From a virus, in the IMG/VR virus record IMGVR_UViG_3300045988_123498: a stretch of 55,256 bases of DNA. One strand, given 5' to 3'. The stretch's first letter is position 1. Each line of letters begins with the position of its first letter. Below the pieces are notes generated by a model. The model was not told where the DNA came from. It ran no database searches and was given only the letters and a program-made list of their open reading frames with translations. This document shows positions 28,444 through 54,857 of the stretch, in pieces. The position numbers and the translations under genes were made by a program.

Positions 28444-29594
28444 GCTTTCACCCCATAAACAACCATTTGTGCACCAGCTTTTATTTCTCCTGCGGAATGT
28501 GTCCAACAAAGACTTTTTACACCTTGTGCGATGGAGCCTTCCCCGATGCTGGAATAAAAGTCATTTACGTAATTATCGAAAAGGTTGTCTCCCCATCCGG
28601 CATGTAAGCATTGAGGTTTCCAATCTCTGGCAATGGAGCATCGTCCACGATACCAGTTATCAGAGCTGTCATGTGAAGGATATGGAGATGAGCTAAATTC
28701 ACCAACAATCGTATATTGCCCCGCATTAGCATATGGTGCGTTAAATATATACGCGATATCTCTGCCTGCCGGAGCGGTTTTCGTATTCGGATATATCCAC
28801 ACCTGACATGCGGCAGTGGATTCCCCCGCAAAAATCGCACGGATTTTTTTGTAATAACCACCAAAAGGTTGATAGATGAATGATACATTTTCGGTTGTCG
28901 TAACTTCACACACCTTTTCCCACACCTCTGTGTCCCCTGCCGCCATGTTCACGGCTTCCCATGCAGTCGGTTTTCCGTTAGCGTCTACGGCTTTAACCTT
29001 GATTGTTTGTCCAACAGTCGCTGTCACGCCGAGAGAGATGTCGGTGCCACTTGGAATATCAATGACCTGCAAAGCATTGTACACAGCTTTTGAAGTCGGT
29101 ACACTTTCATTTGTTGATTCTGCGTTTACCTCAGTGGTTAAACTTACGCTATTTATTTTCAACAAAATCGATTCTAAAATATCACTATACTCTTCTTCAA
29201 TATGCGAGTTAGTTTCGAGTCCTCTCTTTATCGAAGCCTTAGCAACTGTCGTGTTCCATTCTTTTTCTATTACACCGTTCTCGTTTACCTGTCTAGCACA
29301 AAATATAAATAGACAGATGCCTCTGCCAGCAGTTACTTTACTTTTCAATGCCCAAGTAAATGTTATGTTATCGCCATCCACTAAAATATCGTCTATCAAA
29401 TACGAATCTCGGAAACCTTTAGCATTCATATAGTTAATTCTGCATGTGCATTTTGTTAAATCGAGATTATCGCCAACTATTTTAGGGCACGAGAATTCTA
29501 TTCGTTGTGTATTTTTGTCAAATTCAACACCAAAACATTCAGAATTATCTAAAAATATAATTTCTCTGGTATTTGAATCAATAGAACATTTCAT
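28440..29594 (-). CDS. Receptor-binding / tail fibre protein, BppU_N-like N-terminus with a GC-rich C-terminal domain
   Basis: The N-terminal ~165 aa are AT-rich and resemble baseplate-upper-protein anchor domains. The rest is compositionally foreign. The likely start is ATG 29594 (after TGAGGT), with ATG 29606 as an alternative. Confidence 0.7.
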   Translation of the reverse strand: MKCSIDSNTREIIFLDNSECFGVEFDKNTQRIEFSCPKIVGDNLDLTKCTCRINYMNAKGFRDSYLIDDILVDGDNITFTWALKSKVTAGRGICLFIFCARQVNENGVIEKEWNTTVAKASIKRGLETNSHIEEEYSDILESILLKINSVSLTTEVNAESTNESVPTSKAVYNALQVIDIPSGTDISLGVTATVGQTIKVKAVDANGKPTAWEAVNMAAGDTEVWEKVCEVTTTENVSFIYQPFGGYYKKIRAIFAGESTAACQVWIYPNTKTAPAGRDIAYIFNAPYANAGQYTIVGEFSSSPYPSHDSSDNWYRGRCSIARDWKPQCLHAGWGDNLFDNYVNDFYSSIGEGSIAQGVKSLCWTHSAGEIKAGAQMVVYGVKA

Positions 29595-29606
29595 TTTTAA
29601 CCTCAT

Positions 29607-30230
29607 TTACATATTTCTTATAATATTTTACAACTACAGACAAGAATTTATACAAGGAGGAAGACTTTTATTATGCATTGGAGGAAGATACATAAGGTTT
29701 TTCTTGTCTGTATGTGTAAAATATCATAGAAACATGGTACTTTTTATACACTTTTTCAGTATTTTTTTAGAAAAATATCCCTCCGGAGATTTTTCTAGGA
29801 GCCGCCCGATGCAAGGAGGGGGGGTTGTTTTTCAGACCCCCCCGGGGTGCTACAAACGACGCTGCGGTGGGGTAAAGCTGCTTTTCAGTAGAAGAAAAAG
29901 TGTTTGAAAAAGAAAATAATGTATACGAACCGTTCTACCCCCGACGTTCGTCAACGAAACACTTTTGTTTGCGTAACACAGCGGTGTACCTATAAGATTA
30001 AGCTTTCTTCATACTAAATAAAATATTTTACCCCGTAACGGTATGCAGCGTCACAAAGAAATTGGCATTTAATTTTTTTAATTTTTTTAAAATTTTTTAA
30101 TTGTTTAAACGTTTTTCTTTTTAATTAATTCAAACAACAAACAATTCTTTTTGTTTTAATTAGATAAAACTATTTGTTAATTTGTTTTAGTTAATCATTA
30201 AACGTTTAGAAAACTATGGAATAAAAGACA
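29607..30230. other. Largest non-coding region (624 bp): putative late-operon control region, ori or pac candidate
   Basis: No credible ORF. It contains an 11-bp IR (29636..29646 / 29701..29711), a 30-nt AT hairpin (29768..29797), a G7/C7 hairpin (29818..29843), a GC-rich stretch to ~30050 and an A/T-tract block (30060..30230). Confidence 0.6.
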
Positions 30231-30518
30231 CTAGACTAAAGAACCGTTTTCATCAAATAGAATCTCTGGAAATTCTTTCTGAACTTTCACATAAAAGTTA
30301 AAAGGGTCAGCATTTATTATTTGGTCGATGACCGATTCATTTATTCTTTCTGCTATAAAGTCTGGTAAACCAGATAGATTAGCATTATTCATATCTAATA
30401 CCCTAGATACATACCCACATGTATTATAGTGATGGAGGTTATCGTATTGTAACCACTCATCGAAGTTATCGAATGGGTTCCATGGGTTATCGATAGTTGA
30501 TAACCGAGAGTATACCAT
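30231..30518 (-). CDS. Hypothetical 95-aa protein
   Basis: ORF coupled to the upstream 970-aa gene. It carries the motif DNPWNPFDNFDEW. Confidence 0.75.
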   Translation of the reverse strand: MVYSRLSTIDNPWNPFDNFDEWLQYDNLHHYNTCGYVSRVLDMNNANLSGLPDFIAERINESVIDQIINADPFNFYVKVQKEFPEILFDENGSLV

Positions 30519-30520: not shown

Positions 30521-33433
30521 TTAACCCCCCTTTATTATATTTGATACGGTAGATGTTGATATTCCAAAGCGTTTAGCAATTTCCTTTAGTGTATAATTGC
30601 TATTCGCCATGGCTCGGATGGCTGATTTACGGGCATCAGTGAGACCGTCATCGCCCTTGGGTCTAAGTTTTTCCCTTAGTACGTCAGGGTCAGAATTGTC
30701 TAATATTTTCTTGAGGTCGTTTTCCGATATAGCCCTATTTTTAATAGCTTCCCATTCCGGGTCTGATATTTTTATATTTCTATCGCTACGTTTTATAGAC
30801 CCTACAAGACCCCTATATTTAACCATAGTATTCTGGGAGAGCTTTTTAAGGTCTTTCGTAGGCATGTCGTTACCACCGTGCTTTTCCTTATACGCGGTAC
30901 GTATTCCTTCTATTTCTGAAGTGGCTAGACGGATAGCTGCACGCTCTCTAGGTCTATTCAGGAGTGCTGAATCCAATTTTCTCTTAAGAGATTGTACCTC
31001 CTCCGCATATTTAGATGTAGCTACGGGGTCTCTTTTTGCTTTCTCTGAGAATACGGCATTTAGACGTGCCTGATTTGCTAGTGATTTTAGAGTAGACGCA
31101 TAATCAGCGTATAGATTCTCCATTACAGTGTTAGATGTAGAGATTAAAGTCCTCGGGTCATCAGTAGCAGCCATTTTAGTAATTTTTGTTTTCTTCTCGA
31201 CCTTTTTAACCGAGATTAATTCACCAGTTTTAGGGTCGTACTTTTTAAATGTTGCAATTTGGTCAGGGTCTTCCTGCCATATTAGAGAACCTTCAGGTCT
31301 TGATGGGTCGTACCAAGGTTTTCCTTTAACATTAACTTTAGGGGAACCTTTTCTACGAGGAACATACTCGACGCTTTTAGCTCTTGTTAACAAAGTAGAA
31401 GCACCGCCTGTTTTTCCGTTATCTTTAATCTGATACTTATCTTTTAAATCTTGTATATTATACTCGTAATAAGCAGCTTTGTAGTCCAACCCGTGTTTTT
31501 CTGCATCAATAACTACCATAGAGTATTTAACAGCACGTTCCAGCTCATCATCAGATGCTCCGAGAATCGTCATGTCACTAATTAGATTAGTTGCTACACC
31601 CATTTGCTTTTGGGTATCAAGCATACCTTTAAACTTTACTCCATTACGCTCATAAATCTTGGTGTCTCCGACTGTTTTAACCAAATTACCTTGGAATTTG
31701 TCTTTAGGGTCGAATCCCTTTAAACCAGCTAACGGTGCAGTCGATAAGATGTTAATCTTTCCTTTAGGGTCGTTTGTCGGAATACACATTACAGTATCTC
31801 CGTCAAAGTCTGCACCTGACAATCGAGCTGCAACTTCTGATGTTATACCAACAGCATCGATAGATGAAGGTCCAATAACTTTTTCGCCTTCTTTATTACG
31901 GTTATTAACTGTTAGTATAGGTATTTCAAATGTTCCGCCGTGAGGATACCTTACCAAAGCTAATTTAGTTCCGTTTTCATACCTAGGTGCATAAATTTCG
32001 TTGTTCCTAAGTGAATTTATAGGAAGGATTACGTTATAGTGTTGGTCAGGAAACGCTGCCGCTTGAAGTGTTTCAGATTGCTTATCACACGATTCTGCAA
32101 ATTTATTTAAATAATATCGTTTTACTTCTGGTACATCATACGACATTATCTCAGCCAATTCATCTTTTTTATCAGCTATAGCTAAATCTATTTGTTTTTT
32201 AGCTAAATATTTTGGTTGTTTAGATAAAAACTGGCTAGGAACGGCTTTTTTCCATTCGTCCCAATCACCTTCTTCTCTAGTTTTATTAATAGGAGAAAGT
32301 TTCTTTTTACCGTCAGAATCTATGTATTCATACTGACCGTCAGCTTTAATCAAAGCTCCGAATGGATTGTTAGGGTCATCTTCTTTTATACTTTTCAATA
32401 CTTCATCAAACGATTTATTTGATGACTTATTGGTGTTAAATATTACATCAACACCGTCAGGCATATCTTTACCATCAGAATAAACCGCCATACCCTTAAG
32501 GTATTTATCTTTGCCAACAAGAATACGAACCTGCGAATACAATGAATTACCCAGAGATAAATCTTTGACCCCTCTTCGTATTTCTATTAAACCATCTTTT
32601 TGAATACCTTTAAATCCATCAGGACCAACATCGTCAGCGTATCGAATCATAACCCTCTTTCTATCAAGAGAAGCAGGATATTGGGTTTTTCTAAAAGTTT
32701 GACCACCGTCGTCAGATGTATATTCCATTAACGAGTTAACTTTTCCCCAGTCATCAAATATTTCTCGATGTTCAGTGCCCGGCGGACATGCAACTTTCAT
32801 CGTAGTAAATTTTTTTCTATTAGTAGGTTGCTCTACTCGTCCACCATAGATTTCATACCCTTTTGATTTAAGTATAGTCAAAGCTTGATTCATTTTTTCC
32901 TGACTTATTCCAAGCTCTCGACATACGTCTGTACCGACGTCAACCATACCAATTTCATCGATTCGATTCTTTATGAATTCAGCTGCATTTTTAGCCTGCA
33001 GCATCCTTCGTTTAGAATCAGCGTCGAACAGAGATTTAACTGTCGATAACGGTATTCCAGTCTTTCTTGAAATTTCAGAATCGTTAAGACCATCTTTTCT
33101 TAAAGACTCAACTCTATAGACATCGTAAAGACGTTTCTCGTCCTTAGCTATACCTATCTGACTCCTTAATTCAGTAGATTTAATACCAAGAACCTTTGCT
33201 ATAGCATTATCGCCAGTATACAGCTCTCCGTCTTCGTCCGTGTATGTATATTTTTCTTTTCTAGCCTGTTTAATAAAGTCTAGAAAGTCTCCTGGATGTT
33301 TATACCAACTTTCATGTTGAAAAGGATTTTCACCAGACCCCCAAGGATAACGTCCGGAACGTCGAGGCATACCTATATGTTCTATGTGACTTTCATTTTC
33401 ATAAATATCATTGAAATCATATGATATGTTCAT
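30521..33433 (-). CDS. Candidate single-polypeptide two-barrel RNA polymerase (YonO / crAss gp66-like) with HTH domains
   Basis: aa ~306-336, GKDKYLKGMAVYSDGKDMPDGVDVIFNTNK, is beta-like. aa ~494-552, VRYPHGG...AVGITSEVAARLSGADFDGDTVMCIP, is beta-prime-like. DFDGD is encoded at 31796..31810. Several HTH-like segments are present, including the C-terminal LKEIAKRFGISTSTVSNII. Confidence 0.55.
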   Translation of the reverse strand: MNISYDFNDIYENESHIEHIGMPRRSGRYPWGSGENPFQHESWYKHPGDFLDFIKQARKEKYTYTDEDGELYTGDNAIAKVLGIKSTELRSQIGIAKDEKRLYDVYRVESLRKDGLNDSEISRKTGIPLSTVKSLFDADSKRRMLQAKNAAEFIKNRIDEIGMVDVGTDVCRELGISQEKMNQALTILKSKGYEIYGGRVEQPTNRKKFTTMKVACPPGTEHREIFDDWGKVNSLMEYTSDDGGQTFRKTQYPASLDRKRVMIRYADDVGPDGFKGIQKDGLIEIRRGVKDLSLGNSLYSQVRILVGKDKYLKGMAVYSDGKDMPDGVDVIFNTNKSSNKSFDEVLKSIKEDDPNNPFGALIKADGQYEYIDSDGKKKLSPINKTREEGDWDEWKKAVPSQFLSKQPKYLAKKQIDLAIADKKDELAEIMSYDVPEVKRYYLNKFAESCDKQSETLQAAAFPDQHYNVILPINSLRNNEIYAPRYENGTKLALVRYPHGGTFEIPILTVNNRNKEGEKVIGPSSIDAVGITSEVAARLSGADFDGDTVMCIPTNDPKGKINILSTAPLAGLKGFDPKDKFQGNLVKTVGDTKIYERNGVKFKGMLDTQKQMGVATNLISDMTILGASDDELERAVKYSMVVIDAEKHGLDYKAAYYEYNIQDLKDKYQIKDNGKTGGASTLLTRAKSVEYVPRRKGSPKVNVKGKPWYDPSRPEGSLIWQEDPDQIATFKKYDPKTGELISVKKVEKKTKITKMAATDDPRTLISTSNTVMENLYADYASTLKSLANQARLNAVFSEKAKRDPVATSKYAEEVQSLKRKLDSALLNRPRERAAIRLATSEIEGIRTAYKEKHGGNDMPTKDLKKLSQNTMVKYRGLVGSIKRSDRNIKISDPEWEAIKNRAISENDLKKILDNSDPDVLREKLRPKGDDGLTDARKSAIRAMANSNYTLKEIAKRFGISTSTVSNIIKGG

Positions 33434-33435: not shown

Positions 33436-33996
33436 TTACATAAACTCCTCGTCATTTTTACGTAAGATATCGTTTAAATGAATTATCTTATCCATAATAG
33501 CCTTAATCTCGGCAGGATTAGGAATATCAATAATTACATTGTCTGCCTGATATATTCTAAGTTCCATTTTTATTAAAAACGGGTCTTGTCCGTACTCTAA
33601 ACAAAATAGAGCAGCATATATTCTAAGCTGGTCTATTTTGGCAGGAGTATCACCAGTTTTCAAATCGTGAATACGAAGGACATTTTTATAGAAACTAATT
33701 GCGTCAGCTGTTCCATAAAAATACGGACTAAAATATAACAGTACTTCTGGGTCCATTCTATAGTCGATTGCATCGTTTATGTACTTGTATATGATGTTAT
33801 TCTTCCTATTGGCCTGACGAAGTTTTAATTCAATGGTTTCCTTGGCCCATGCATGTAATCGCGTTCCAAGTTCAACTTTTTTTAAATTGTTATAAACTTC
33901 TAGGGCTTTATCATCCGAATAATTTAACCACGAATATTTTGACGGTGAAAACAAACAGTGGCTTGATTCAAGATTTAAATGCTTGTTCCAAATCAT
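33436..33996 (-). CDS. PD-(D/E)xK-type nuclease candidate (exonuclease/Cas4-like)
   Basis: 186 aa with GTADAISF...LRIHDLKTG, fitting the D...(D/E).K motif. RBS is GAGGAG. Confidence 0.5.
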   Translation of the reverse strand: MIWNKHLNLESSHCLFSPSKYSWLNYSDDKALEVYNNLKKVELGTRLHAWAKETIELKLRQANRKNNIIYKYINDAIDYRMDPEVLLYFSPYFYGTADAISFYKNVLRIHDLKTGDTPAKIDQLRIYAALFCLEYGQDPFLIKMELRIYQADNVIIDIPNPAEIKAIMDKIIHLNDILRKNDEEFM

Positions 33997-34258
33997 TTAG
34001 TATCTCCTCTTTATTGTTAGGGTTTATAAATGCAGCGTAACTCATATCGTTCATCTTTTTAACATAATATTCTTGATTAGGTTGTTTGTGAGATAGCTCA
34101 TTTTTCTTACATTCTAGAGCGAACCAAATATCATTGTACAAAACTAATAAATCCGGAATGCCCTGAATATAAGAGGCGTCGTTTTTTAAAACAATACACC
34201 CCTCGAATCGTTTCTTTAGTTCGGATATTAATTGGTTTTGAAATGCTGATTCTTTCAT
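33968..34258 (-). CDS. VRR-NUC / Hjc-like PD-(D/E)xK nuclease
   Basis: Start at ATG 34258 (MKESAFQNQL...). Motif GIPDLLVL...WFALECK. The track N-terminal extension runs through the tRNA. Confidence 0.65.
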   Translation of the reverse strand: MKESAFQNQLISELKKRFEGCIVLKNDASYIQGIPDLLVLYNDIWFALECKKNELSHKQPNQEYYVKKMNDMSYAAFINPNNKEEILNDLEQAFKS

Positions 34259-34285
34259 AAAATCTCCATAACTAAAAAATATAAA

Positions 34286-34371
34286 TGGTACTCGTGGTGG
34301 GACTTGAACCCACATGAATAAAATTCGACGGATTTTAAGTCCGTTGCGTATGCCAATTCCGCCACACGAGC
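34286..34371 (-). tRNA. tRNA-Leu(UAA): tRNA-Leu (anticodon UAA), type II with long variable arm, CCA encoded
   Basis: GCTCGTG-TG-GCG-GAATTGGCATA-CGC-A-ACGGA-CTTAAAA-TCCGT-CGAATTTTATTCAT-GTGGG-TTCAAGT-CCCAC-CACGAGT-ACCA. All four stems pair and the T-loop is TTCAAGT. Confidence 0.93.
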
Positions 34372-34404
34372 AAAAAATATAAAGGAATGCTTCTAAAGTC
34401 ATTC
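34372..34404 (-). terminator. Hairpin + U-tract immediately 5' of the tRNA
   Basis: Minus strand reads GGAATG-actttagaag-CATTCC TTTATATTTTTT, then the tRNA 5' end. Confidence 0.45.
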
Positions 34405-34468
34405 CTCATCTATTCCTATCATAAAAGGACTTGTTTTTCTCGTCACCCCCTTAACCGAAAAACTTCTC

Positions 34469-43503: not shown

Positions 43504-43680
43504 TTACTTCCTTTCTTTTGTCTTTTTGACAGTCTTTTTATTTTCTTCATAATTTATAGGCCGTCTAGAATTTTCTCTAGCTGGAACACTCAAACAGTAA
43601 TCGCATGGGTCATCTGCGTCACTTGAGTCATAATGTTTACATTTTGGACAATAAAGTTCAAACTCCACTATCTTCTCCAT
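43504..43680 (-). CDS. Small zinc-ribbon protein
   Basis: CPKC...(12)...CDYC. The first ATG is at 43680 and the track start 43698 is TTG. It overlaps the polymerase 3' end. Confidence 0.65.
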   Translation of the reverse strand: MEKIVEFELYCPKCKHYDSSDADDPCDYCLSVPARENSRRPINYEENKKTVKKTKERK

Positions 43681-46600
43681 CGTTTTCGACTTCGACAAAT
43701 TTATTGAAATTTACATATTTACTTATAGTTTTTACAGCATCATCAACTAAGCTTTCGTAATATGAAATATCAATATCGTCTTCCTTTCCTAGATTTTTTA
43801 CGTCTTCTGATTCGAGCCACATATAGTCTTTTGTACCTGTGACTGAATCGTATTTAGATGAACCGTCTTTGTTTTTTCTTCTACTAACTAAAACACCTCC
43901 GCCATGTCCGGACTTTATAGGACAAAACGCTCCAACTTTTCCTACGTACTGGTAATTGTGTTCACCGTCAGGAAGAGTTTCATTCATGTCCAAAAGCATT
44001 TCTGTGGAAACTGTCTTAGTCTCACACAAATCCGAAAATATAATTGGTTCATGAGAGAACAATGTTTTGAACACGTATGGAACCGCGAATTGAGTACCTG
44101 TTGCAGTCCAATGACCATCTTTGGCATCTTTAGCTATATACACTGCTTTATTTACGAGACACATTTTCTCGTACGTAGCTTCGTGTTCAAAATTATAACC
44201 ATACTTCTTACCGAACTCTTTAACCTGTTCAATTATTTCAGGTGTAGCATTTGGTATCTTTATCGAGTCCGTCTTTATATGAGCGACCGTGAATCCTTTA
44301 GATTCTACGAATTCCTTTAGGTCGACCATAAATAATGCGCCTCGTTTCGCAATTATGTTATCGATGTTTCGAATATCACGAAAACGATTGTCAAACGAAG
44401 CAAATGTCTGACCGTAAACTGCATTTATAGGAGTTTTAAGACCGTTCGACAGATATTTAGAACTGAGTTCTCCTGATTCAATACGACCTACATATTTCGA
44501 CAGTTTACCATCCAACATTGTTCTTAATACATTCATATTTTGATGCTTGACTTCAACTCTTGTCTCTACGAGGTCCATAAACTTTTGTGTATACTTAGGT
44601 CCGAAGTAACACTCAGACAATGCAGAATGCGGATGCTGAGATGTTATGTCTAACAACGCGACATTAAAATATACTCCGGGTTCAGAATATACAAATCCTC
44701 CTTCACCAACCTCGATACCTTTGTAAGTAGATACACCGTTATCGAACTTGTATCCGTCAAAATAAGGCAAAAGACTATTCGCTTCACCATGACGAATCGC
44801 CATCATATCCGGGAAATACTTTTTCAAAAATATCAATACATCTTCGTCTAGTTCGAAGACCGGTTTTGACAAATCCCTATATCGGAATTCTTTCTGCGGA
44901 TTCTTCTCTGCACCAAATATAATTCGAGCTGTATGCTCGTTCGTACTTGTGTTTAGAGACAATCCTGACAAATCGGCAAGTATCTGTCTAGCGAACCAAT
45001 CGCCTTTTAAGAAATCGAATACCGCTTCAGTAGCTATAACATCGTTGTCACAGTATTCTGCTACTTTTGGAATGTCTTCATCTTTAACTGGCTCATCCCA
45101 CGGTAACCCGAGTTCTTTGTGATGTATACCCAATTTTATTTCAAATTTCTTCAACGACATTTTGTTTCCAGCTGAAGCAAAATCGTATACATCTGCGTAT
45201 GACAAACTATATGCCTGACCAAAGAATCCTGTTCCTTCGTTTATTATCTTTTGACTTAAGTTATACAGTTCTTCATTTGAATAACCGATTAACCGTGCGT
45301 ACAACATATGATTGTCATATCTTTTGCAATTGAACCCGATTAAATTGTGTTTGCAAAGATTGTCGACATCATTTGGTGTTGGGTTTATTAAGCGTATAAC
45401 TGGGTTAACTGCGCCTCTGAATTTCCAATTTATTAAAAATAGATTTGGAAACACCTCTACGTCGAAAAACACGATGTCATCAGTGTTATCCTCATTTAAA
45501 TCTTTTACAGTTTCATGCTCTGAAAAGAATTTCATGTCTGCTACTTTTTTTACGCAATATGCTGCTTGATTTGTACTGTTCATTGCAAAGGCATATATTA
45601 CGTTTTTCAAATCGGATACGTCGTAGTTAATACCACTATTATACGCTTCTTCCAAAGTTTTGTATATCATGTCTATAGACGATTTTGTCGACGGCATTAT
45701 TTCTTTTTTCAAATGCCTCGATATAACCGTTCTGATAGCTTTTTCATTTTTTAAACCATTAAAGTCTATCACTTTGTTTTCTTTTTTTATTGGAAGTCCT
45801 GAATTTATTACGGCTATTTGCTCGTTGTTACATTTCGTTAAAAGGCGTCTTAATGACGAATTGCCATTGAACACTTTTACTTCTATGTTCTCTGAGTAAA
45901 TACCTGCTAGCTTAGAGACATCTCCTTCATAAATATAATGTAAGTGAACACCTTTACCGCTCTTACTCAACTCCGCATACGTCTTCGGAAATTTTGATGC
46001 AGCTTCGATATTTTTAGCTAAAGACTTTTCACCATTGTCTTTCAAGTCGAAGTCTATAACTATATGATTAAGCGGCACCTTGACATAGTGCAATATTGAT
46101 GTATCAATAGATGATAATGTGGTTTTAACCGAATCCCATTTTTTATACGGAAGTCCATCGTTATTTGCGTACTGCGCTGGTTGGTCTTTTAAAATATCAT
46201 CCAGAATAGATGATTGAGATTTCATAGAAAGCCATCCATTGTCCGTATGATTGTCACTTTCGCATTGAGATTCTTCAGATAAATTCAAGTCCTTAAAACC
46301 ATGATAATAACTCCTAGCTCGTGTCCCATCCTCCAAAATATAACGTTCGTGATACTCTTCGAAGTAATTTCTCAATTCTTCTCTGAATATTCGCATAGAA
46401 AACGGATACTGAACTTTTGCTTCATCACAGTAGTTCTTATACATTTCCCATGCTACTTTAAGCGGAACGCCATTGTTTTCCATAAATTTGTTATACGAAT
46501 CTAATACAAAATTATAAAAGTCATTACTAGCGTTCAACATTATAACTGGAACGTATTTATCATATTTTGTCGGATTACTCAGATAGACATTTTTACACTT

Positions 46601-47575
46601 ATTTGCAATCGCTCCGAGTTCAAAGTCTATCTTTTTAGTAAGAGTATTGTATTTCTGCTGACTTACCTTCTTACCTGTCGGTGAAACATCTATCAATCGT
46701 CTGATTATACCTGAACGTGAGTCAGTTATCTTAACTGGCTTGTTGGTTCCCATGAATAAGAAACACCGGTACCGATTACTGTACAACGACTTATACTTCT
46801 CGTTCACGGTCATCATCTCGTGTGATACAAGACTGTTTAATCTAGTGTTATCTTCGATTCTAGACAAATCACCGTCATGTTGTATGCCAACCAACGGATT
46901 GCACTTAAACGGTTCAAGAGCAAAAGAGTTGTTAGATGAACCTAAGGCTTTTGCATCGAATACAGAATAATATCCTTCGAATAGTTTCTGAATAATATTA
47001 AGGACTGTAGACTTACCAGTACCAGCAGAACCGTAAAACACGAGAAATTTCTGTATGTTTACTGAATCTCCTGTTACGATTGAACCTATGGCCCATTCTA
47101 TCTTTTCCTTTTCTGTCGAAGAATATAAAGTACCGACAAGTTCATCCCATGCATCCGTAGGACCATCATTTAACGTATATGATAGCTTTTTGGATACATA
47201 GTCTTCTTTTTTAGGATGCTGGTCTGCGAAAGTTATTCTATCATCTAATTGTACGTAGTTGTCTCTAAGATGCTTCTGGCAATATTTATGCCATTTATCT
47301 ATGAGACCTGATTCTGAATCCCAAAGAAATTTTGGAATGACCGTAACGTCAGGTTTCTCCTCTTGCAATTTATTTGCGTACTGTTTTACGTCATTGTCAA
47401 TCAGGTTCAATAGAACGTTTTCGTCCGTAGACCATAATTGTTCTTGTTCGTTCCAAACGGCATAAAAATCGCCACCTCTTATCATCAAATCGTTAGTACG
47501 ATTAACGATAAATTTAGGATAGACTTCAATTGTCATATCCTTACTTCTTTTAGTTGCTATTAAATAGAAGTCCAT
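43658..47575 (-). CDS. Fusion replicase: SF3/D5-like helicase + AEP primase-polymerase + family B DNA polymerase
   Basis: P-loop FYGSAGTGKST. AEP motifs VIDFDLKD and SGKGVHLHYIY. Exo I FFDVEVFPN, Exo II NCKRYDNHML and Exo III YCDNDVIA. PolB motif A LLDITSQHPHS, motif B KTPINAVYGQT and motif C HIKTDSI. Confidence 0.8.
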   Translation of the reverse strand: MDFYLIATKRSKDMTIEVYPKFIVNRTNDLMIRGGDFYAVWNEQEQLWSTDENVLLNLIDNDVKQYANKLQEEKPDVTVIPKFLWDSESGLIDKWHKYCQKHLRDNYVQLDDRITFADQHPKKEDYVSKKLSYTLNDGPTDAWDELVGTLYSSTEKEKIEWAIGSIVTGDSVNIQKFLVFYGSAGTGKSTVLNIIQKLFEGYYSVFDAKALGSSNNSFALEPFKCNPLVGIQHDGDLSRIEDNTRLNSLVSHEMMTVNEKYKSLYSNRYRCFLFMGTNKPVKITDSRSGIIRRLIDVSPTGKKVSQQKYNTLTKKIDFELGAIANKCKNVYLSNPTKYDKYVPVIMLNASNDFYNFVLDSYNKFMENNGVPLKVAWEMYKNYCDEAKVQYPFSMRIFREELRNYFEEYHERYILEDGTRARSYYHGFKDLNLSEESQCESDNHTDNGWLSMKSQSSILDDILKDQPAQYANNDGLPYKKWDSVKTTLSSIDTSILHYVKVPLNHIVIDFDLKDNGEKSLAKNIEAASKFPKTYAELSKSGKGVHLHYIYEGDVSKLAGIYSENIEVKVFNGNSSLRRLLTKCNNEQIAVINSGLPIKKENKVIDFNGLKNEKAIRTVISRHLKKEIMPSTKSSIDMIYKTLEEAYNSGINYDVSDLKNVIYAFAMNSTNQAAYCVKKVADMKFFSEHETVKDLNEDNTDDIVFFDVEVFPNLFLINWKFRGAVNPVIRLINPTPNDVDNLCKHNLIGFNCKRYDNHMLYARLIGYSNEELYNLSQKIINEGTGFFGQAYSLSYADVYDFASAGNKMSLKKFEIKLGIHHKELGLPWDEPVKDEDIPKVAEYCDNDVIATEAVFDFLKGDWFARQILADLSGLSLNTSTNEHTARIIFGAEKNPQKEFRYRDLSKPVFELDEDVLIFLKKYFPDMMAIRHGEANSLLPYFDGYKFDNGVSTYKGIEVGEGGFVYSEPGVYFNVALLDITSQHPHSALSECYFGPKYTQKFMDLVETRVEVKHQNMNVLRTMLDGKLSKYVGRIESGELSSKYLSNGLKTPINAVYGQTFASFDNRFRDIRNIDNIIAKRGALFMVDLKEFVESKGFTVAHIKTDSIKIPNATPEIIEQVKEFGKKYGYNFEHEATYEKMCLVNKAVYIAKDAKDGHWTATGTQFAVPYVFKTLFSHEPIIFSDLCETKTVSTEMLLDMNETLPDGEHNYQYVGKVGAFCPIKSGHGGGVLVSRRKNKDGSSKYDSVTGTKDYMWLESEDVKNLGKEDDIDISYYESLVDDAVKTISKYVNFNKFVEVENDGEDSGV

Positions 47576-50863: not shown

Positions 50864-50938
50864 GGGAAGTATCCCATAATAGTATTTGTTTTTCTCGTCA
50901 AAAAATAAAACAAAAAGGCCATCGTTTTATTGATGACC
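50864..50938 (-). promoter_or_regulatory. Cassette I: promoter block with a different terminator hairpin (50917..50938)
   Basis: Minus strand reads GGTCATC-aataaaac-GATGGCC TTTTTGTTTTATTTTT TGACGAGAAAAACAAATACTATTATGGGATACTTCCC. Confidence 0.55.
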
Positions 50939-50961
50939 CTCTTGCTTTCTACTTACCTATT

Positions 50962-51114
50962 TTACCTATCATGTATATTATGATGTATACTTCTATGGAT
51001 AGGATGTGTATACGTGTGTCTCAATGCTTCCGCTTCGTCTTTATCTTTCTGCTTGCGTACAGCATTCTTAATTGATATAACACAAATTATTCCAATAATA
51101 AGCCCTACTATCAT
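50962..51114 (-). CDS. 50-aa TM peptide with a His-rich tail
   Basis: MIVGLIIGIICVISIKNAVRKQKDKDEAEALRHTYTHPIHRSIHHNIHDR. RBS is GGAGGATACT. Confidence 0.5.
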   Translation of the reverse strand: MIVGLIIGIICVISIKNAVRKQKDKDEAEALRHTYTHPIHRSIHHNIHDR

Positions 51115-51139
51115 AGTATCCTCCAAGTTTTAATTTTTT

Positions 51140-51176
51140 GGTAGTATCCCATAATAGCGTTTGTTTTTCTCGTCAG
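51140..51176 (-). promoter_or_regulatory. Cassette J, promoter-like block only
   Basis: Minus strand reads CTGACGAGAAAAACAAACGCTATTATGGGATACTACC. Confidence 0.45.
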
Positions 51177-51304
51177 TTTGTGCTTGTCTCGTACTTTTTT
51201 ATTTCTGCCGATATTTCTTTTTTCATATCGTTTTCCAAATATCTTGCGATAAGAAATCCGCCTATCATATCACAGATTGTTCCTAAAGCGTTAAACACGT
51301 TCAT
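51173..51304 (-). CDS. 43-aa peptide
   Basis: MNVFNALGTICDMIGGFLIARYLENDMKKEISAEIKKYETSTN. RBS is AGGAGGAAGATTTGAAA. It overlaps the end of the ThyX-like gene. Confidence 0.45.
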   Translation of the reverse strand: MNVFNALGTICDMIGGFLIARYLENDMKKEISAEIKKYETSTN

Positions 51305-51974
51305 TTTCAAATCTTCCTCCTGTTATAAGCCAACTGTTAGGTAGCTCACGTATTTTTTTACAAAAACTAATCCATTCGTACAATTTATGAGACTTTCGCT
51401 CATTATACATCTTGTGTAATGCCTCGTAACTAAGCATCACGGTTCGTTTTTGATTATACGAACTAGGTAGTGTCTGTATAATCTGCCACCAATATTTTTT
51501 ATCCATTGTTTTTAAATATAAATCGCGATTCTTGTTTAAATAATCGATTATATTGTCTAGACAATTGAAATCAGTTAACATATCAGCGCTAAAATCTTCT
51601 CGCACGAATTTTTTAGCTGTTATCTTATGCATAGTTGAGCACGAATTACTTACAGTTCCAACTTTATATGTGTCGAACTCTTTCCACCAATATAGTGGTG
51701 CGCAAATATCCATATAAACAACTATCATTCTCATAAATTTTCTGTGCGACGGTCCAGCCTTGACAAGTTGATTCATCAAAGTTGTGTCATTGTACCCTAG
51801 AAAATATACATGGTCTGCAGGTTCAACATGGAGCTCAGTTTCGTCTATCATAGCGTCAATACGAGGGATATTATTATACCCACTATCTGATTTGTCCCAA
51901 GAATTCATTGGGTTACGCATCCCTCGTATCGACTCTTCGAAACCGTAAACGCTCACTTTATCTATAGTCAGCAT
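51291..51974 (-). CDS. ThyX-like (flavin-dependent thymidylate synthase fold) protein, divergent
   Basis: SHRKFMRMIVVYMDICAPLYWWKEFDTYKVGTVSNSCSTMH aligns by eye with the ThyX H..LEH....F.I.G.SR.....L.RHR..S..Q.S.RY. The RHR triad reads TYK. Confidence 0.35.
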   Translation of the reverse strand: MLTIDKVSVYGFEESIRGMRNPMNSWDKSDSGYNNIPRIDAMIDETELHVEPADHVYFLGYNDTTLMNQLVKAGPSHRKFMRMIVVYMDICAPLYWWKEFDTYKVGTVSNSCSTMHKITAKKFVREDFSADMLTDFNCLDNIIDYLNKNRDLYLKTMDKKYWWQIIQTLPSSYNQKRTVMLSYEALHKMYNERKSHKLYEWISFCKKIRELPNSWLITGGRFENERV

Positions 51975-51986
51975 TATCGATTCTCC

Positions 51987-52727
51987 TTACAGCAATTGCG
52001 GTTCTTCAAACGACAACATCAAGACGTAAAAATTCTCGTCTATACAAGCTCTACGATGCCAAAAATGCACTTCTTCGTCAATCCACCACAAAGATTGCAT
52101 ACTTATAGGATATTCGTCGTCATAATAGTTCTTAAGTACAATGTCCATGTCCAATTGTCTATAAAAATCTATAACTGAACACCTTCCACGTTTTCGTACA
52201 ACTTCATTTACATAATGCTCAGCTGTCAGGAGTTCATCCATCGTAGTCTCCATGTATGATAAAGTAAACATGTCATAGACAAGTATAGTATCAGGGTTAT
52301 CATCAGATATAGTTAAACCCATATCTTTTACATCTTGTCTAGCGATGTCTTCCTCAATTTTATCCTTAAGTCCTGCCTTTTCCAACGCAGAATTGATTTT
52401 GTCTTTGTATTTACTGTAGGATGCATTCGCAAACGTGTACAATCCAATCAAAGACGCCTGTTGTCTGTTGGACAGAATTGTATTTCCAATGATGCTAGCT
52501 ACTGTACCTATTCCAGTAGCTATTACAGGAGCATACGATTTGACGTCACTAATAACAGCATCTTTTTTTGTGAAATCGTCTCCCTTCTGTTTTTTCAACT
52601 CTTCTTTTCGTTGTACAGCTTTTGGAGTTATTTTAGCCGTAAGTACGATAGACGCTACCGTTCCTACAACGCTCAAAGCACTAAGAATATAATTCCCATT
52701 TTTTTTAAAAAATTCGCTGAAACTCAT
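51987..52727 (-). CDS. Two-TM protein, paralog family (see 48760..49629)
   Basis: 246-aa track ORF with motifs KSYAPVIATGIG...SYSKYKDKI. Confidence 0.85.
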   Translation of the reverse strand: MSFSEFFKKNGNYILSALSVVGTVASIVLTAKITPKAVQRKEELKKQKGDDFTKKDAVISDVKSYAPVIATGIGTVASIIGNTILSNRQQASLIGLYTFANASYSKYKDKINSALEKAGLKDKIEEDIARQDVKDMGLTISDDNPDTILVYDMFTLSYMETTMDELLTAEHYVNEVVRKRGRCSVIDFYRQLDMDIVLKNYYDDEYPISMQSLWWIDEEVHFWHRRACIDENFYVLMLSFEEPQLL

Positions 52728-52897
52728 TTTGACACCTCATCTTTAACTTTTTTAAATTTGTTCTTTACAGAATTTTTAAACGACGTCCACTTTGCAGGAT
52801 TCCGTTTTATGATGATAAACGCTGCGATACCGACCGGGATAATTATGTTGGTTGTCCACAGTCGTATTTCCCTCATCAGTTCCACATTCCTACTCAT
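52724..52897 (-). CDS. 57-aa single-TM protein
   Basis: MSRNVELMREIRLWTTNIIIPVGIAAFIIIKRNPAKWTSFKNSVKNKFKKVKDEVSK. RBS is GGAGGCATAATCAT. Its stop overlaps the next start (ATGA). Confidence 0.55.
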   Translation of the reverse strand: MSRNVELMREIRLWTTNIIIPVGIAAFIIIKRNPAKWTSFKNSVKNKFKKVKDEVSK

Positions 52898-52914
52898 ATG
52901 ATTATGCCTCCAGA

Positions 52915-53637
52915 TTAATAAGAATTGTTAAAATTGTATACAGGGTCGCTACTATATGAAAATACCAGCACCGGATACCCGTGCTTTGACTTTTCGTAAT
53001 GATACACAATATCAAGACCATCACCAGAACGTCCATACTCCTTGGACGTCCAGCCGACTATATCTCCAATATCTGAACCATCTTTATCTAGATACGCATA
53101 GAACTCATTTAATGAACACGCATCATAATTCATTATGTCTCTATTTACACTATTAATAGCTCGTTCGAGACTTAAGATATTCGAATAAAAATATCTTCCA
53201 GAATACGAGTCATAGCACATCATCTCATCCATCTGGCGTATGTCATTAGGCGAAGGCGTTGAATCATTGGAATCCATAGATTTCTTATTAGCTTTCTCTT
53301 GTATCGTGTCCTTAACTTCGTTAGAAACCGTGTCTGCAACCGCAGATTTATAACTAGAGAGCGCATTCTGTGTCACTCCAACCAGCGTAGACGTAGCTAC
53401 GATTGAATTATTTAATCCAATAGCACCTGCGATTATCGCTCCTGACGACGTAACAACATTAATCGCGACAGGAATATAGCTCTTCCATGTGCTCTTTATT
53501 TTTTCTTTTCTGGAAATCAACTTATCAGAATACAAATTAGCGTGCTTTTTGCCAATGTTGAAAAGCTGGATTCCAGAAAATATCAATCCACCGATTCCAG
53601 CTCCAATTAAAATGTTAGATTTTAACCTGTTATTCAC
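52915..53637 (-). CDS. Two-TM protein, paralog family (see 48760..49629)
   Basis: 240 aa with a GTG start at 53637. Motifs KSYIPVAINV...SSYKSAV...LNEFYAYL...IVGWTSK. Confidence 0.8.
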   Translation of the reverse strand: MNNRLKSNILIGAGIGGLIFSGIQLFNIGKKHANLYSDKLISRKEKIKSTWKSYIPVAINVVTSSGAIIAGAIGLNNSIVATSTLVGVTQNALSSYKSAVADTVSNEVKDTIQEKANKKSMDSNDSTPSPNDIRQMDEMMCYDSYSGRYFYSNILSLERAINSVNRDIMNYDACSLNEFYAYLDKDGSDIGDIVGWTSKEYGRSGDGLDIVYHYEKSKHGYPVLVFSYSSDPVYNFNNSY

Positions 53638-53705
53638 TTTTGAAACAATAGAACAGACTGTTTAATCTGTTCTATTTTACCTCCAATCTTATTTTTCTTT
53701 GAATG

Positions 53706-54008
53706 TTACTTCGTCAACTTCTTAAACAAACTCTTTGCTGCTTCCGAAGTGAACATACTATCACCGCTGTATTCGACGAACAGCGACAGCAAAAATACAA
53801 ACGTACTCACCCCTATAGGGACGAGTGACGAAACAATCTCTCTACGCTTTGTATAAGCGTCGGTCGATTTAATTATTGCCTCTCTAATCCTTATTAGTCT
53901 AGTTAGTATTTTGTCATATTTGTCGTCGTTTACGTCAAGCTTATTAAGCTCGGTCAATAGTCTTCGCTCCTCCGCTTTGAGAGCCTGAAAATTCGTTTTT
54001 TTCTTCAT
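53706..54008 (-). CDS. 100-aa C-terminally TM-anchored protein
   Basis: Start at ATG 54008 after GGAGGAGTTT. The track start 54080 runs through cassette K. Confidence 0.8.
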   Translation of the reverse strand: MKKKTNFQALKAEERRLLTELNKLDVNDDKYDKILTRLIRIREAIIKSTDAYTKRREIVSSLVPIGVSTFVFLLSLFVEYSGDSMFTSEAAKSLFKKLTK

Positions 54009-54032
54009 AAACTCCTCCAAAAATATAATTTT

Positions 54033-54101
54033 GGTATTTATCCCATAAAACAACATGTTTTTCTGGTAAAACAAGAACACCCACTGTATTTCAAGTGAGT
54101 G
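54033..54101 (-). promoter_or_regulatory. Terminator-promoter cassette K (hairpin 54078..54101)
   Basis: Minus strand reads CACTCACT-tgaaatac-AGTGGGTG TTCTTGTTT TACCAGAAAAACATGTTGTTTTATGGGATAAATACC. Confidence 0.6.
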
Positions 54102-54124
54102 CCCCGTTTTGGGTTTTAAACTTC

Positions 54125-54316
54125 TTAGTTGATATTCGTCTGGTTTGTAATTATTTCACTCAGACCATACGAAACGTCAGTTAATAGACTGAGGATGTCC
54201 CTATATTGATTATCTAGAATCTGCGCGGAGTTTCTCATACTCCACAGATTCTGAATCACCAATATATTTGCGGTGATGCATTCCTCATATTGTTTCTTCG
54301 TCTTTTCGTCGTTCAT
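54125..54316 (-). CDS. 63-aa hypothetical protein
   Basis: Start at ATG 54316 after GGAGGATTTATGTT. The track start 54391 runs through cassette L. Confidence 0.75.
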   Translation of the reverse strand: MNDEKTKKQYEECITANILVIQNLWSMRNSAQILDNQYRDILSLLTDVSYGLSEIITNQTNIN

Positions 54317-54342
54317 AACATAAATCCTCCAAATATAAATTA

Positions 54343-54412
54343 GGAAATAATTCCCATAACAGTACATGTTTTTCACGTTAAAATGAAACACCCACTGTAT
54401 TTCAAGTGAGTG
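54343..54412 (-). promoter_or_regulatory. Terminator-promoter cassette L (hairpin 54389..54412)
   Basis: Hairpin plus TTTAACGTGAAAAACATGTACTGTTATGGGAATTATTTCC. Confidence 0.55.
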
Positions 54413-54429
54413 CGCTCATGGTTAACACC

Positions 54430-54600
54430 TTATCTTTTTCTTTTTCTTGTTCTTATTTTTTCAGCGATATGCATAATTATAACGCTTAATGAAAATATCT
54501 CCATCAATGTTAGTAACGCGTACAGATATACGCCTACAAACAAACTTCCTGTGTTATTATAAATAATTTCCACAAGCGCTTTCCATGCTCCGGTGAACAT
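54430..54600 (-). CDS. 56-aa membrane peptide with a basic tail
   Basis: MFTGAWKALVEIIYNNTGSLFVGVYLYALLTLMEIFSLSVIIMHIAEKIRTRKRKR. RBS is GGAGGATTATT. Confidence 0.55.
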   Translation of the reverse strand: MFTGAWKALVEIIYNNTGSLFVGVYLYALLTLMEIFSLSVIIMHIAEKIRTRKRKR

Positions 54601-54626
54601 AATAATCCTCCAATAAAAATATAATT

Positions 54627-54695
54627 TTGGTATTTATCCCATAAAACGACCTGTTTTTCTTGTCAAACAAGAACACCCACTGTATTTCAAGTGAG
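54627..54695 (-). promoter_or_regulatory. Terminator-promoter cassette M (hairpin 54672..54695)
   Basis: Hairpin plus TTGACAAGAAAAACAGGTCGTTTTATGGGATAAATACC. Confidence 0.6.
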
Positions 54696-54716
54696 TGCCT
54701 TTGGTTTTGATAATCC

Positions 54717-54857
54717 TTATTTTTTCTTTACACCATGAATGTAAATTCGTCTAACTTCCTCTTTTATCATCTTACGTTGTTGTTTTTTGTTTCCTATTGC
54801 GCTTAGCACGCCTCCAGCAAAAGAACATACAAGTCCGATAATAATTAAAGTTGCCAT
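54717..54857 (-). CDS. ~46-aa single-TM peptide (3' end approximate)
   Basis: ATG 54857 follows GGAGGAAACAGTT. It reads MATLIIIGLVCSFAGGVLSAIGNKKQQRKMIKEEVRRIYIHGVKKK. The stop lies in a long A/T run that I could not place exactly by eye. Confidence 0.35.
   Translation of the reverse strand: MATLIIIGLVCSFAGGVLSAIGNKKQQRKMIKEEVRRIYIHGVKKK

Follow-up and report, generated by a model that had tools for sequence, protein, structure and literature searches.

The 55,256-nt stretch of DNA analyzed here, hereafter referred to as the window, is the IMG/VR virus record IMGVR_UViG_3300045988_123498, and it encodes a 970-residue protein that is a member of a large, uniform, and already catalogued phage family of single-chain two-barrel RNA polymerases. 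In our judgment the protein is likely to be a DNA-dependent transcriptase whose own helix-turn-helix (HTH) modules read a compact phage promoter without a separate sigma factor. The open reading frame (ORF) had been singled out earlier from the nucleotide sequence, in a note that placed it at exactly the coordinates of the ORF listing (minus strand; Table 1) and that proposed a polymerase with built-in HTH domains. That interpretation is a correct rediscovery from raw sequence. It is not a novelty, because the core resembling an RNA-dependent RNA polymerase (RdRP), the DxDGD loop, and the terminal HTH domains of the family had already been described in bioRxiv 10.1101/842583.

The polymerase gene and its family

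The protein matches the hidden Markov model of PHROG 4291 (“RNA-dependent RNA polymerase”) with an E-value of 0 and a score of 1018 bits, with residues 12-968 aligned to profile positions 7-906 of 909. By tblastn, homologues were found in 250 phage records, 249 of them at a query coverage of at least 80% and with sequence identities of 34-51%. The host tally of these records includes Arthrobacter (95), Gordonia (55), Streptomyces (54), and Lactococcus (13), and further carriers are Curtobacterium, Microbacterium, and Rhodococcus phages, the Faecalibacterium phage FP_oengus, and human oral and faecal assemblies. At least 8,000 scored matches to the polymerase were obtained from a large protein collection, and an exhaustive profile search returned 3,415 clusters (50% identity) at E ≤ 1e-3 and 1,149 at E ≤ 1e-30. 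Of the top 150 profile-matched clusters, almost every one is 890-1,090 residues in length and matches the profile from end to end. The family also occurs in many human-gut contigs. The expectation of the earlier note that the system would prove unusual was thus not borne out, given that the family is very large and had been flagged in silico before.

In actinophage clusters AM, AU, AW, DJ, CC, EL, and BI, in the Lactococcus 1706-like phages, and in FP_oengus, the polymerase is the signature gene of a supercluster (bioRxiv 10.1101/842583, 2021). The same work reports an HHpred match of the family to the Pfam RdRP model (P=95.7%, 286 columns), HTH domains at both termini, and a DxDGD loop in common with the crAss-like and YonO-like polymerases; it makes no mention of promoters. 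In papers devoted to phages of Arthrobacter, Microbacterium, Rhodococcus, and Streptomyces, the gene is listed with nothing said about its function or promoters. The labels given to the protein in sequence records are inconsistent, ranging from “RNA-dependent RNA polymerase” and “putative RNA polymerase” to “helix-turn-helix DNA-binding domain protein,” “putative transcription factor D5,” “tail fiber protein,” and “structural protein.”

Barrel motifs and active site

Conservation was assessed with an alignment of 14 sequences from phages of Actinobacteria and Firmicutes (37-57% identity), and motifs were surveyed in 147 full-length cluster representatives that are no more than 50% identical to one another. 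The two segments to which the earlier note had drawn attention lie where it put them, with residues 306-336 corresponding to VGKDKYLKGMAVYSDGKDMPDGVDVIFNTNK and residues 494-552 to VRYPHGGTFEIP...SGADFDGDTVMCIP. In the alignment, the invariant residues of the β-like segment are Y299, Q301-I304, Y311, K313, G314, A316, P325, G327, D329, and F332-K336, and those of the β′-like segment are R495, P497, H498, G500, F502, E503, P505, D526, S539-D546, I551, and P552. Three basic residues of the β-like barrel, R303, K313, and K336, are among them. The three lysines that the earlier note had expected to face the metal loop fared differently, in that K313 is invariant whereas K308 and K310 are not. The two long helices that follow the second barrel are likewise well conserved, with M611, G612, N616-I618, D620-T622, A634, V635, S638, M639, V641-D643, K646, H647, and L649 invariant, and in the structural model they form a candidate bridge-helix region.

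The D-DGD motif is unique to residues 542-546 in a six-frame translation of the whole window, and its recomputed codon positions are those given in the earlier note. Among the 147 representatives, 144 have D[FY]DGD, 138 have Y-KG-A, and 143 have ID-EKH, and the motifs occur in the order β-like to β′-like in 135. The persistence of the DFDGD and K-G motifs in homologues, which had been put forward as a check on the polymerase assignment, holds down to 37% identity. As judged from these alignments, the similarity of the barrel motifs is far beyond chance.

This conservation bears on the idea that the protein is a catalytically inactive DNA-binding protein built on a degenerate polymerase scaffold, serving as a transcription factor or in genome-end binding or packaging. 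Such a role would agree with the actinophage records, most of which label the homologue as an HTH protein and nothing more, with the observation that only HTH domains pass the Pfam thresholds, with the location of the gene next to the cohesive-end (cos) region described below, and with the “structural protein” label carried by the homologue in phage 1706. The near-universal retention of D[FY]DGD (144/147) and K-G, together with the core motifs, across clusters of 50% identity or less and across host phyla points instead to a constrained active site rather than a relic scaffold, and we find an inactive protein hardly credible.

Structural model and fold affinity

An AlphaFold2 model of the full-length protein, built on 76 sequences, has a mean predicted local distance difference test score (pLDDT) of 78.8 and a predicted template modeling score (pTM) of 0.70. 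Around DFDGD the model displays a helix (532-539), a loop, and a strand (547-553). In a Foldseek search of the PDB the top match is QDE-1 (7y7t_A, E=9.3e-7, probability 1.00), followed by maize RDR2 (7w82, E=8e-5, and 7w84) and Arabidopsis RDR2 (7eu1_M), all with a probability of 1.00. The E-values for the QDE-1 and RDR2 matches span 9.3e-7 to 2e-3 at sequence identities of 10-13%. Further down the list, and not significant, are the largest subunits of Pol II (Rpb1), Pol III, and the poxvirus and African swine fever virus RNA polymerases, with Rpb1 and the poxvirus subunit at E~0.2. A Foldseek search of a viral structure library matched phage proteins named “RNA dependent RNA polymerase.” A sequence search of the PDB with the single protein gave one spurious match, to L24 (E=0.28).

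The best fold matches to QDE-1 and RDR2, the full-length match to PHROG 4291, the invariant motifs, and the published HHpred result lend support to the two-barrel polymerase reading of the earlier note, and the model supports placement of the protein in the two-barrel superfamily, nearest to the QDE-1/RDR branch. The note had named YonO, gp66, and QDE-1 together as the class. The fold affinity to QDE-1 and the RDR enzymes stands, but no similarity to YonO was found and gp66 lies outside the 50 best-ranked PDB folds. Assignment to the YonO family was rejected, given that hhalign of the family profile against YonO yielded a probability of 0.2% and BLASTP gave E-values of 5 or higher. Bacillus is not in the host tally of the 250 tblastn records, and the SPbeta genome (NC_001884.1, Bacillus phage SPBc2) is not evident there.

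With cellular RdRPs as its closest folds, the protein might be thought to be a true RdRP, producing double-stranded or antisense RNA from phage or host transcripts for regulation or counter-defence, or laying down RNA primers, in the manner of QDE-1 and the RDR enzymes. In addition to the QDE-1 and RDR2 matches and the HHpred match to the Pfam RdRP model (bioRxiv 10.1101/842583), this idea draws on the location of the gene in the replication/recombination module, beside nucleases. QDE-1 itself is described as having both DNA- and RNA-dependent activity (PMC9508822). Arguing in the other direction are the several HTH modules of a type that binds double-stranded DNA at both ends of the protein, and the polymerase-primase fusion (PHROG 4210) with which this double-stranded DNA phage already covers priming. 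Moreover, YonO, a biochemically tested bacterial-virus enzyme of this kind, is DNA-dependent (PMC5467207), and the RdRP name stems from Pfam similarity rather than from an assay. We therefore hold a true RdRP to be very improbable; the database term “RNA-dependent” is probably a misnomer inherited from that similarity.

DNA-binding modules and the N-terminal peptide

The earlier note had proposed four HTH segments, and these differ in how they are supported. The C-terminal unit and that at residues ~103-141 have statistical support, residues ~169-216 have weak fold support, and residues 76-95 are suggested by a helix-turn-helix pattern in the model. For the C-terminal unit the Pfam matches exceed the gathering scores, with Sigma70_r4 at 35.3 bits versus a cutoff of 24.1. 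The Sigma70_r4 match is confined to a 39-residue HTH, the same stretch is matched by many other HTH families, and sigma regions 2 and 3 were not found by Pfam in the 970-residue protein. The unit is accordingly described as sigma-4-like in form, a description that does not establish homology to sigma factors. Residues ~103-141 match PHROG 3855 (“HTH DNA binding protein,” 2.1e-7), and when the family profile is used, HTH domains of the Psq, resolvase, and cI types are weakly matched in this region.

A separate model of residues 47-236 (pLDDT 89.9, pTM 0.80) contains eight helices followed by a β-hairpin, with residues ~169-216 forming a helix-turn-helix plus β-hairpin. Local Foldseek matches of this domain were to TFIIE-alpha/Tfa1 (probability 0.99), human TFIIE, Stf76, and MarR-type winged helices; the best E-value was 0.12, such that the fold search with this domain produced no significant E-value. 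The TFIIE-like winged-helix resemblance is a weak lead. Segments of the recognition helices are conserved in the 14-sequence alignment, namely ESTVRSL in the second unit and STSTVS in the C-terminal unit, consistent with a DNA target that is itself conserved. No sigma factor or other RNA polymerase subunit was found among 39 other ORFs searched against PHROGs or 16 searched against Pfam, in keeping with what the earlier note had observed.

Preceding these modules, residues 1-48 have pLDDT values below 50 in the full-length model and are predicted to be disordered. Within them lies a conserved peptide (Table 1) in which H19, G21, S26-Y29, and G32-G34 are invariant across phyla in the 14 sequences. 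It is present in 119 of the 147 representatives, starting at a median position of residue 26. The SGRYPWGSG sequence was considered as a packaging signal common to several proteins of the window; no second copy exists in the window.

Promoter-terminator cassettes in the window

The promoter recurring in the window is compact in form, consisting of a W-rich element, ACA, five variable bases, and TATNNT, and it is usually preceded by a terminator. In transcription order a cassette comprises, in most copies, an intrinsic-terminator hairpin GGCACTCACTTGAAAnACAGTGGGTG with a T-run, then TTGACGAnAAAAACA, 5 variable bases, and TATTATGG(G/A)(A/G)TAAA. Approximately 20-25 nt further on are GGAGG and a start codon. 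Copies were defined by an anchored listing together with a position weight matrix (PWM), and significance was judged against shuffled sequence. The matrix identifies 16 unique promoter copies, all on the gene strand, which score 16-52 bits versus a shuffle maximum of 12.7. Fifteen of the 16 head genes of a ~7-kb small-gene array that is contiguous across the ends of the window. Terminator-like hairpins are enriched in this array, at 10 versus 2.1 ± 1.3 expected.

The remaining copy is the divergent promoter of the nuclease-polymerase operon (Table 1). It is followed by a leader hairpin that may be a transcription attenuator controlling the operon. The arrangement of leader hairpin and T-rich run is also conserved in the metagenomic relatives L016 (~960-1000) and L017 (~7460-7500), which are at ~55% identity.

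The strong cassettes have TATTAT at a distance of 14 nt from TTGACG; at a spacing of 17 nt the hexamer would be TATGGG. None of the strong cassettes was called by a sigma-70 consensus scanner. The totals from the scanner are at chance (31 vs 27.8 ± 5.8, and 26 vs 20.2 ± 4.5), and the sole cassette that it accepts is the divergent operon promoter, GTGACG-17-TATGAT, a 9/12 match.

Cassettes in related phages

Cassette forms recur in five relatives, with hosts belonging to Arthrobacter, Streptomyces, Gordonia, Lactococcus, and Faecalibacterium. The form is GACGCGAAAAAtACA-N5-cTTTATGGA in FP_oengus (12 copies), CGCGtAAAttACA-N5-TATAATG in Mudcat (6 copies), CAcatGTTTTACA-N5-TATAGTAGAAAG in 1706 (9 copies), and TCGCA-N4-TTACA-N5-TATA(G/A)TGAGACCCCTAC in Rima (12-13 copies). 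In Rima, 11 copies of a terminator-like repeat, GACCCCGCAAGGGGTTTGGGTTT, are interleaved with the promoter cassettes. Rima, a Streptomyces phage, and BluerMoon, a Gordonia phage, have a nearly identical 30-nt element, TCGCA-N4-TACA-N5-TATAAT-GAGACCCCTA, and no -35-like hexamer occurs 17 bp upstream of it. Variants of the promoter across the phages of the family are TATTATGGGA, TATAGTGAGA, and TATAGTAGAA. A cassette with a leader hairpin stands directly upstream of the nuclease-polymerase operon in FP_oengus, L016, and L017 as well.

A degenerate core, [AT]ACA-N5-[TC][AT]T[AT][AG]T[AG][AG], was also counted. On the gene strand, on the other strand, and as expected per strand, the numbers are 16, 5, and 1.7 for the window; 5, 0, and 0.56 for FP_oengus; 8, 0, and 0.65 for Mudcat; 12, 0, and 2.0 for 1706; 11, 0, and 0.11 for Rima; and 7, 0, and 0.10 for BluerMoon (18 kb). 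That an element abutting the -10-like box is kept across host phyla together with the polymerase is the chief argument for reading of these sites by the polymerase rather than by a host sigma factor. The conservation suggests, in other words, that the polymerase reads its own cassette promoters.

The actinophage promoter core CCCTATAGTGAG is found at Rima 25899-34092 and BluerMoon 7688-14462. The core coincides in sequence with a 12-nt piece of the T7 class III promoter when the latter is reverse-complemented, probably by chance around the CTATAG palindrome.

Proposed function

From its N- to its C-terminus, the polymerase as modeled comprises a disordered SGRYPWGSG terminus, a helical HTH/winged-helix region, the β-like barrel with K313-G314 and FNTNK, the β′-like barrel with SGADFDGD, the conserved pair of long helices, and a helical C-terminal part that ends in the sigma-region-4-like HTH. 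It would use a DNA template despite the name “RNA-dependent RNA polymerase,” and its fused HTH modules would recognize the promoter [GACGAnAAAAACA]-N5-[TATTAT]GGGATAAA. The 15 copies that head genes of the small-gene array, for the most part with an intrinsic-terminator hairpin immediately before them, would be its targets, as would the divergent copy that heads the nuclease-polymerase operon itself. What is observed is the ORF, the conservation of its motifs, the fold class, the HTH modules, the promoter array, the retention of the promoter architecture in relatives, and the location of the gene beside the predicted cos; catalysis, the use of DNA as template, the match of polymerase to promoter, and when the enzyme acts are inferred.

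Several observations weigh against this scheme. The global TM-scores of the fold matches are low, 0.24-0.31 overall and 0.30 for QDE-1, as is expected for multidomain proteins with different peripheries. At E ≤ 1, a Pfam hmmscan of the single protein returned HTH families and neither an RdRP nor an RNA polymerase model, and the family profile, when run against PDB sequences, gave weak HTH matches and no polymerase. The literature searched yielded no work on the biochemistry, structure, or transcriptome of the PHROG 4291 family. With respect to the promoters, the matrix located no cassette before the structural genes anywhere in the window, and TTGACG is present in the cassettes of the window. 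A TATAAT-like box (TATAAT, TATAGT, TATTAT) is also recognized by any primary bacterial sigma factor. The cassettes could belong to the host RNA polymerase, with the conserved spacer element being the site of a regulator, and their similarity within one genome partly reflects duplication.

A division of labor such as that of YonO would accommodate some of these points. The host RNA polymerase would transcribe the small-gene array and the replication module, polymerase operon included, with the cassettes as unusual host-type promoters, and the phage enzyme would later act at one or a few other promoters, perhaps downstream of cos, to express the lysis and structural genes that come after its own gene on the circular map. 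One late operon is all that YonO transcribes (PMC5467207), and in the window the polymerase gene is the last large one before the lysis and structural genes, with no cassette in front of the structural genes. The operon promoter fits sigma-70 spacing (GTGACG-17-TATGAT), and the cassettes hold TTGACG and a TATAAT-like box. The strong cassettes, however, fail the sigma-70 spacing and -10 criteria, the element adjacent to the -10 box recurs across host phyla with actinophage versions that have no -35, and 9/12 sigma-70 matches such as that of the operon promoter arise ~28 times per 7.6 kb by chance. A candidate late promoter was not found. We consider this division of labor unlikely and favor transcription of the cassettes by the phage polymerase.

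Genome setting and the predicted cos region

Listed in Table 1 are the features of the polymerase, its neighbors, and the cassettes. Bases 1-87 of the window are identical to bases 55170-55256, and the window is therefore a complete genome in circular assembly, one unit of which is 55,169 bp long. All of its long ORFs are on the minus strand. Upstream of the polymerase operon, in transcription order, are genes for a DNA polymerase-primase (43658..47575, with PHROG 4210 and primase matches), MazG, an annealing protein, a helicase, and a ribonucleotide reductase.

Table 1. Location of the polymerase gene, its protein segments, neighboring features, and promoter cassettes in the window
Feature	Position	Strand	Basis or remark
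Single-chain two-barrel RNA polymerase ORF	30521..33433	(-)	ATG start, 970 aa, ORF listing
Conserved peptide H-G----SGRYPWGSG--P-Q, aa 19-39	33317..33379	(-)	Inside predicted disordered N-terminus
N-terminal DNA-binding region (predicted), aa 47-236	32726..33295	(-)	HTH-like aa 76-92, 118-136; winged-helix-like aa 169-216
β-like double-psi barrel (predicted), aa ~282-387	32273..32590	(-)	Model strand pattern; motifs YsQVRI, Y-KGmA, P-GvD--FNTNK
β′-like double-psi barrel (predicted), aa ~465-553	31775..32041	(-)	R-PHgG-FEiP, SGADFDGD; invariant columns
Codons of D542-F-D-G-D546, presumed catalytic metal-binding loop	31796..31810	(-)	Computed coordinates
Two long helices after second barrel, aa 607-647	31493..31615	(-)	MG--SNLI-DMT, AV-HSM-VIDaEKH-L; model helices 607-624, 628-647
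C-terminal HTH, sigma-70 region 4-like, aa 930-968	30530..30646	(-)	Pfam HTH_23 3.8e-9, Sigma70_r4 8.3e-9, Sigma70_r4_2 3.2e-6
Cas4-like exonuclease, same operon, upstream	33436..33996	(-)	PHROG 3953 exonuclease, 5.9e-67
Small endonuclease, same operon, upstream	33968..34402	(-)	PHROG 93 endonuclease, 7.3e-18; true start probably later
Conserved 95-aa ORF after polymerase gene	30231..30518	(-)	PHROG 4303, 2.6e-19
Predicted cos region	29771..29847	(-)	Junction between 29800 and 29799
Divergent cassette-type promoter of nuclease-polymerase operon, GTGACGAGAAAAACA-N5-TTTTATGATAGGAATAG	34410..34446	(-)	PWM 16.4
Leader hairpin after operon promoter	34384..34405	(-)	Then T-rich run, between promoter and endonuclease gene
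Cassette array, first part	50866..55254	(-)	Repeat families D1-D8; PWM 26-52 bits; upstream of small genes
Promoter copies, first part	50866-50906, 51141-51181, 54035-54075, 54346-54386, 54631-54671, 54893-54933, 55035-55075, 55214-55254	(-)	
Cassette array, second part, contiguous on circular map	45..2716	(-)	Repeats and PWM
Promoter copies, second part	45-85 (duplicate of 55214-55254), 533-573, 803-843, 1005-1045, 1478-1518, 1922-1962, 2373-2413, 2676-2716	(-)	

A small ORF follows the polymerase gene in Mudcat, FP_oengus, 1706, P092, Rima, BluerMoon, Damascus, D_HF5_2C, L016, and L017, with that of 1706 (orf76) matching the 95-residue ORF of the window by tblastn at 4e-10. Its product may be an accessory factor. 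The block of endonuclease, exonuclease, polymerase, and small ORF is kept in every relative examined and lies at the extreme right end of the linear records. Beyond the 95-residue ORF are a 624-bp gap and then genes for a 388-residue protein, an endolysin, an HNH endonuclease, and a virion structural protein (PHROG 4247). The late block continues with the large terminase subunit (TerL), portal, fused protease-capsid, and tail genes, including that for the 2,515-residue tape measure protein. The ORF order from the PHROG scan agrees with the earlier observation that the polymerase gene is the last large one before the lysis and structural block.

The sequence of the gap, ...CCCCGGGGGGGTCTGAAAAACAACCCCCCCTCCTTGCATCGGGCGGCT|CCTAGAAAAATCTCCGGAGGGATATTTTT..., can be aligned to both physical ends, right and left, of the genomes recorded for Mudcat, Rima, 1706, and BluerMoon, and also to the equivalent gaps of the metagenomic relatives L016 (5001-5080) and L017 (11440-11520). 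On the strength of the alignment with the genome termini of relatives in both host phyla, the gap is predicted to hold cos, and the polymerase gene would then be the last but one at the right end of the virion DNA. The layout is a hairpin of G-run, A-rich loop, and C-run, followed by TTGCATCGGGCGGCT|CCTAGAAAAATCTCCGGAGGGATATTT. Mudcat has 9-base 3′ cohesive ends (PMC5513430). The segment 29607..30230, which the earlier note had put forward as a template for promoter assays, was rejected as the promoter region of the polymerase; it contains the predicted cos junction, and the matrix detects no cassette promoter there. A G+C-rich segment of the gap was considered as a known RNA; an Rfam search of 29500..30300 was empty, and the segment corresponds instead to cos. 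The loop of the cos hairpin (TCtCGCAAAA..AC) resembles the upstream element of the promoter in several phages, though not in all, and the resemblance is not used as evidence here.

Elsewhere in the genome, a single gene (18186-19961) fuses the head maturation protease with the major capsid protein (PHROG 3270, 2e-206). Fusions of this unusual type have been described for Arthrobacter clusters AM and AU, and the gene supports common ancestry with those phages. At ~1.5 Å per residue, the tape measure protein (gene 7527-15074, 2,515 aa) predicts a tail of ~375 nm, unusually long for a siphovirus-type genome of 55 kb. Two 90-nt segments, 20527-20616 and 35662-35751, are 92% identical with sharp edges and unrelated flanks, and they lie in frame in the portal gene (aa 198-227) and in the ribonucleotide reductase gene (aa 781-810), encoding ...FDEEQSR-K-NLIIQLPF--RTNLM.... 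Between the helicase and ribonucleotide reductase genes are tandem-like repeats of ~235-260 nt and ~480 nt (38482-39212 and 39451-40170), each with a small ORF and a ribosome-binding site for it; together they constitute a family of small genes that has been duplicated locally. Three paralogous genes of the DUF6353/PHROG 2152 type occur in the early and middle region (48760-49629, 51987-52727, and 52915-53637), and L017 also has a DUF6353 gene near its polymerase. Finally, the segment 21421-21630, between the portal and terminase genes and overlapping the 3′ end of the latter, is 75.8% identical in nucleotide sequence to FP_oengus, the only such stretch within 20000-44000 when compared with deposited phages; its FP_oengus counterpart is annotated as a helicase (RefSeq: DEAD/DEAH box helicase family protein).

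Possible packaging in the virion

The GenBank record of phage 1706 marks predicted functions as “putative” and applies the plain term “structural protein” to eleven ORFs, among them orf75, the polymerase homologue, which is located outside the morphogenesis block. The label hints at detection of the protein in virions. Homologues of orf62 and orf71, two other 1706 “structural proteins” encoded outside that block, were not found in the window. A gene adjacent to both cos and the late block, an invariant disordered N-terminal peptide, and a cassette-type operon promoter would fit an early polymerase delivered with the virion. In that event the packaged, self-contained enzyme would enter with the right end of the genome, its sigma-4-like and TFE/TFIIE-like modules would read a promoter of 25-30 bp kept along with the enzyme in phages of Actinobacteria and Firmicutes, the N-terminal peptide would be a packaging or ejection signal, and early transcription would be independent of the host RNA polymerase. 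This extension of the model is doubtful at present. If true, it would help to explain how the lineage has crossed host phyla and why its G+C content stays so different from the values of its hosts.

Significance and comparison with known systems

The gene in the window adds one member to a known family and not a new kind of system, and in itself would not surprise a specialist. The appeal of the family as a tractable target lies in its abundance, its fused DNA-binding modules, and a promoter architecture that crosses phyla. If the proposed function is correct, the family provides a compact two-barrel RNA polymerase with promoter-recognition modules in one chain and a short, defined set of promoters and terminators. 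It would be useful for learning how minimal two-barrel polymerases initiate, for correcting annotations, and possibly as a tool for orthogonal expression in Gram-positive bacteria. That phages of different host phyla have a promoter architecture in common is a new and testable handle that goes beyond the published description of the family.

Other single-polypeptide two-barrel phage RNA polymerases, namely gp66 of phi14:2, a crAss-like phage, and gp96 and gp64 of Thermus phage P23-45, employ DNA motifs specific to the phage; two of them, gp66 and gp96, are brought in with the virion, whereas P23-45 gp64 is a non-virion enzyme (10.1101/2022.12.01.518664). In contrast to the protein described here, gp66 and gp96 each form a domain within a giant virion protein, and neither is among the 50 best-ranked PDB folds. 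Sigma-4-like or winged-helix modules in cis have not been described for gp66, gp96, or gp64. The SPbeta enzyme YonO is a DNA-dependent, and not an RNA-dependent, RNA polymerase (PMC5467207). Like the protein in the window, it is a single-chain phage polymerase of ~100 kDa that is distantly related to the multisubunit enzymes (PMC5467207), and the likeness is one of functional analogy. YonO belongs to a separate family, serves one late operon, and has no reported HTH modules at its termini.

The closest likeness in fold is to QDE-1 and RDR2 (Pfam PF05183), which are also single chains with a β-like barrel preceding a β′-like barrel and with a DbDGD metal loop. These enzymes are without fused HTH modules and function in RNA silencing on single-stranded RNA or DNA, whereas the protein in the window is encoded by a double-stranded DNA phage that carries promoter-like arrays.

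The nearest relatives, by comparison, are FP_oengus AUV56548 (“putative RNA polymerase”), Mudcat gp94, Rima gp86, and 1706 orf75, which are full-length homologues at 37-51% identity that share the N-terminal peptide, the HTH modules, the barrel motifs, and the C-terminal HTH. Their genomes display the same synteny (endonuclease, Cas4-like exonuclease, polymerase, small ORF, cos) and analogous promoter-terminator cassettes. The phage in the window is low in G+C (~36%), and its nearest isolated relative is only 44.5% identical. A gut origin is probable, given that human faecal and Faecalibacterium phages are the deposited relatives closest to it. Its variant of the promoter is TATTATGGGATAAA with an upstream TTGACG, as compared with TATA(A/G)TGAGACC in the actinophages.

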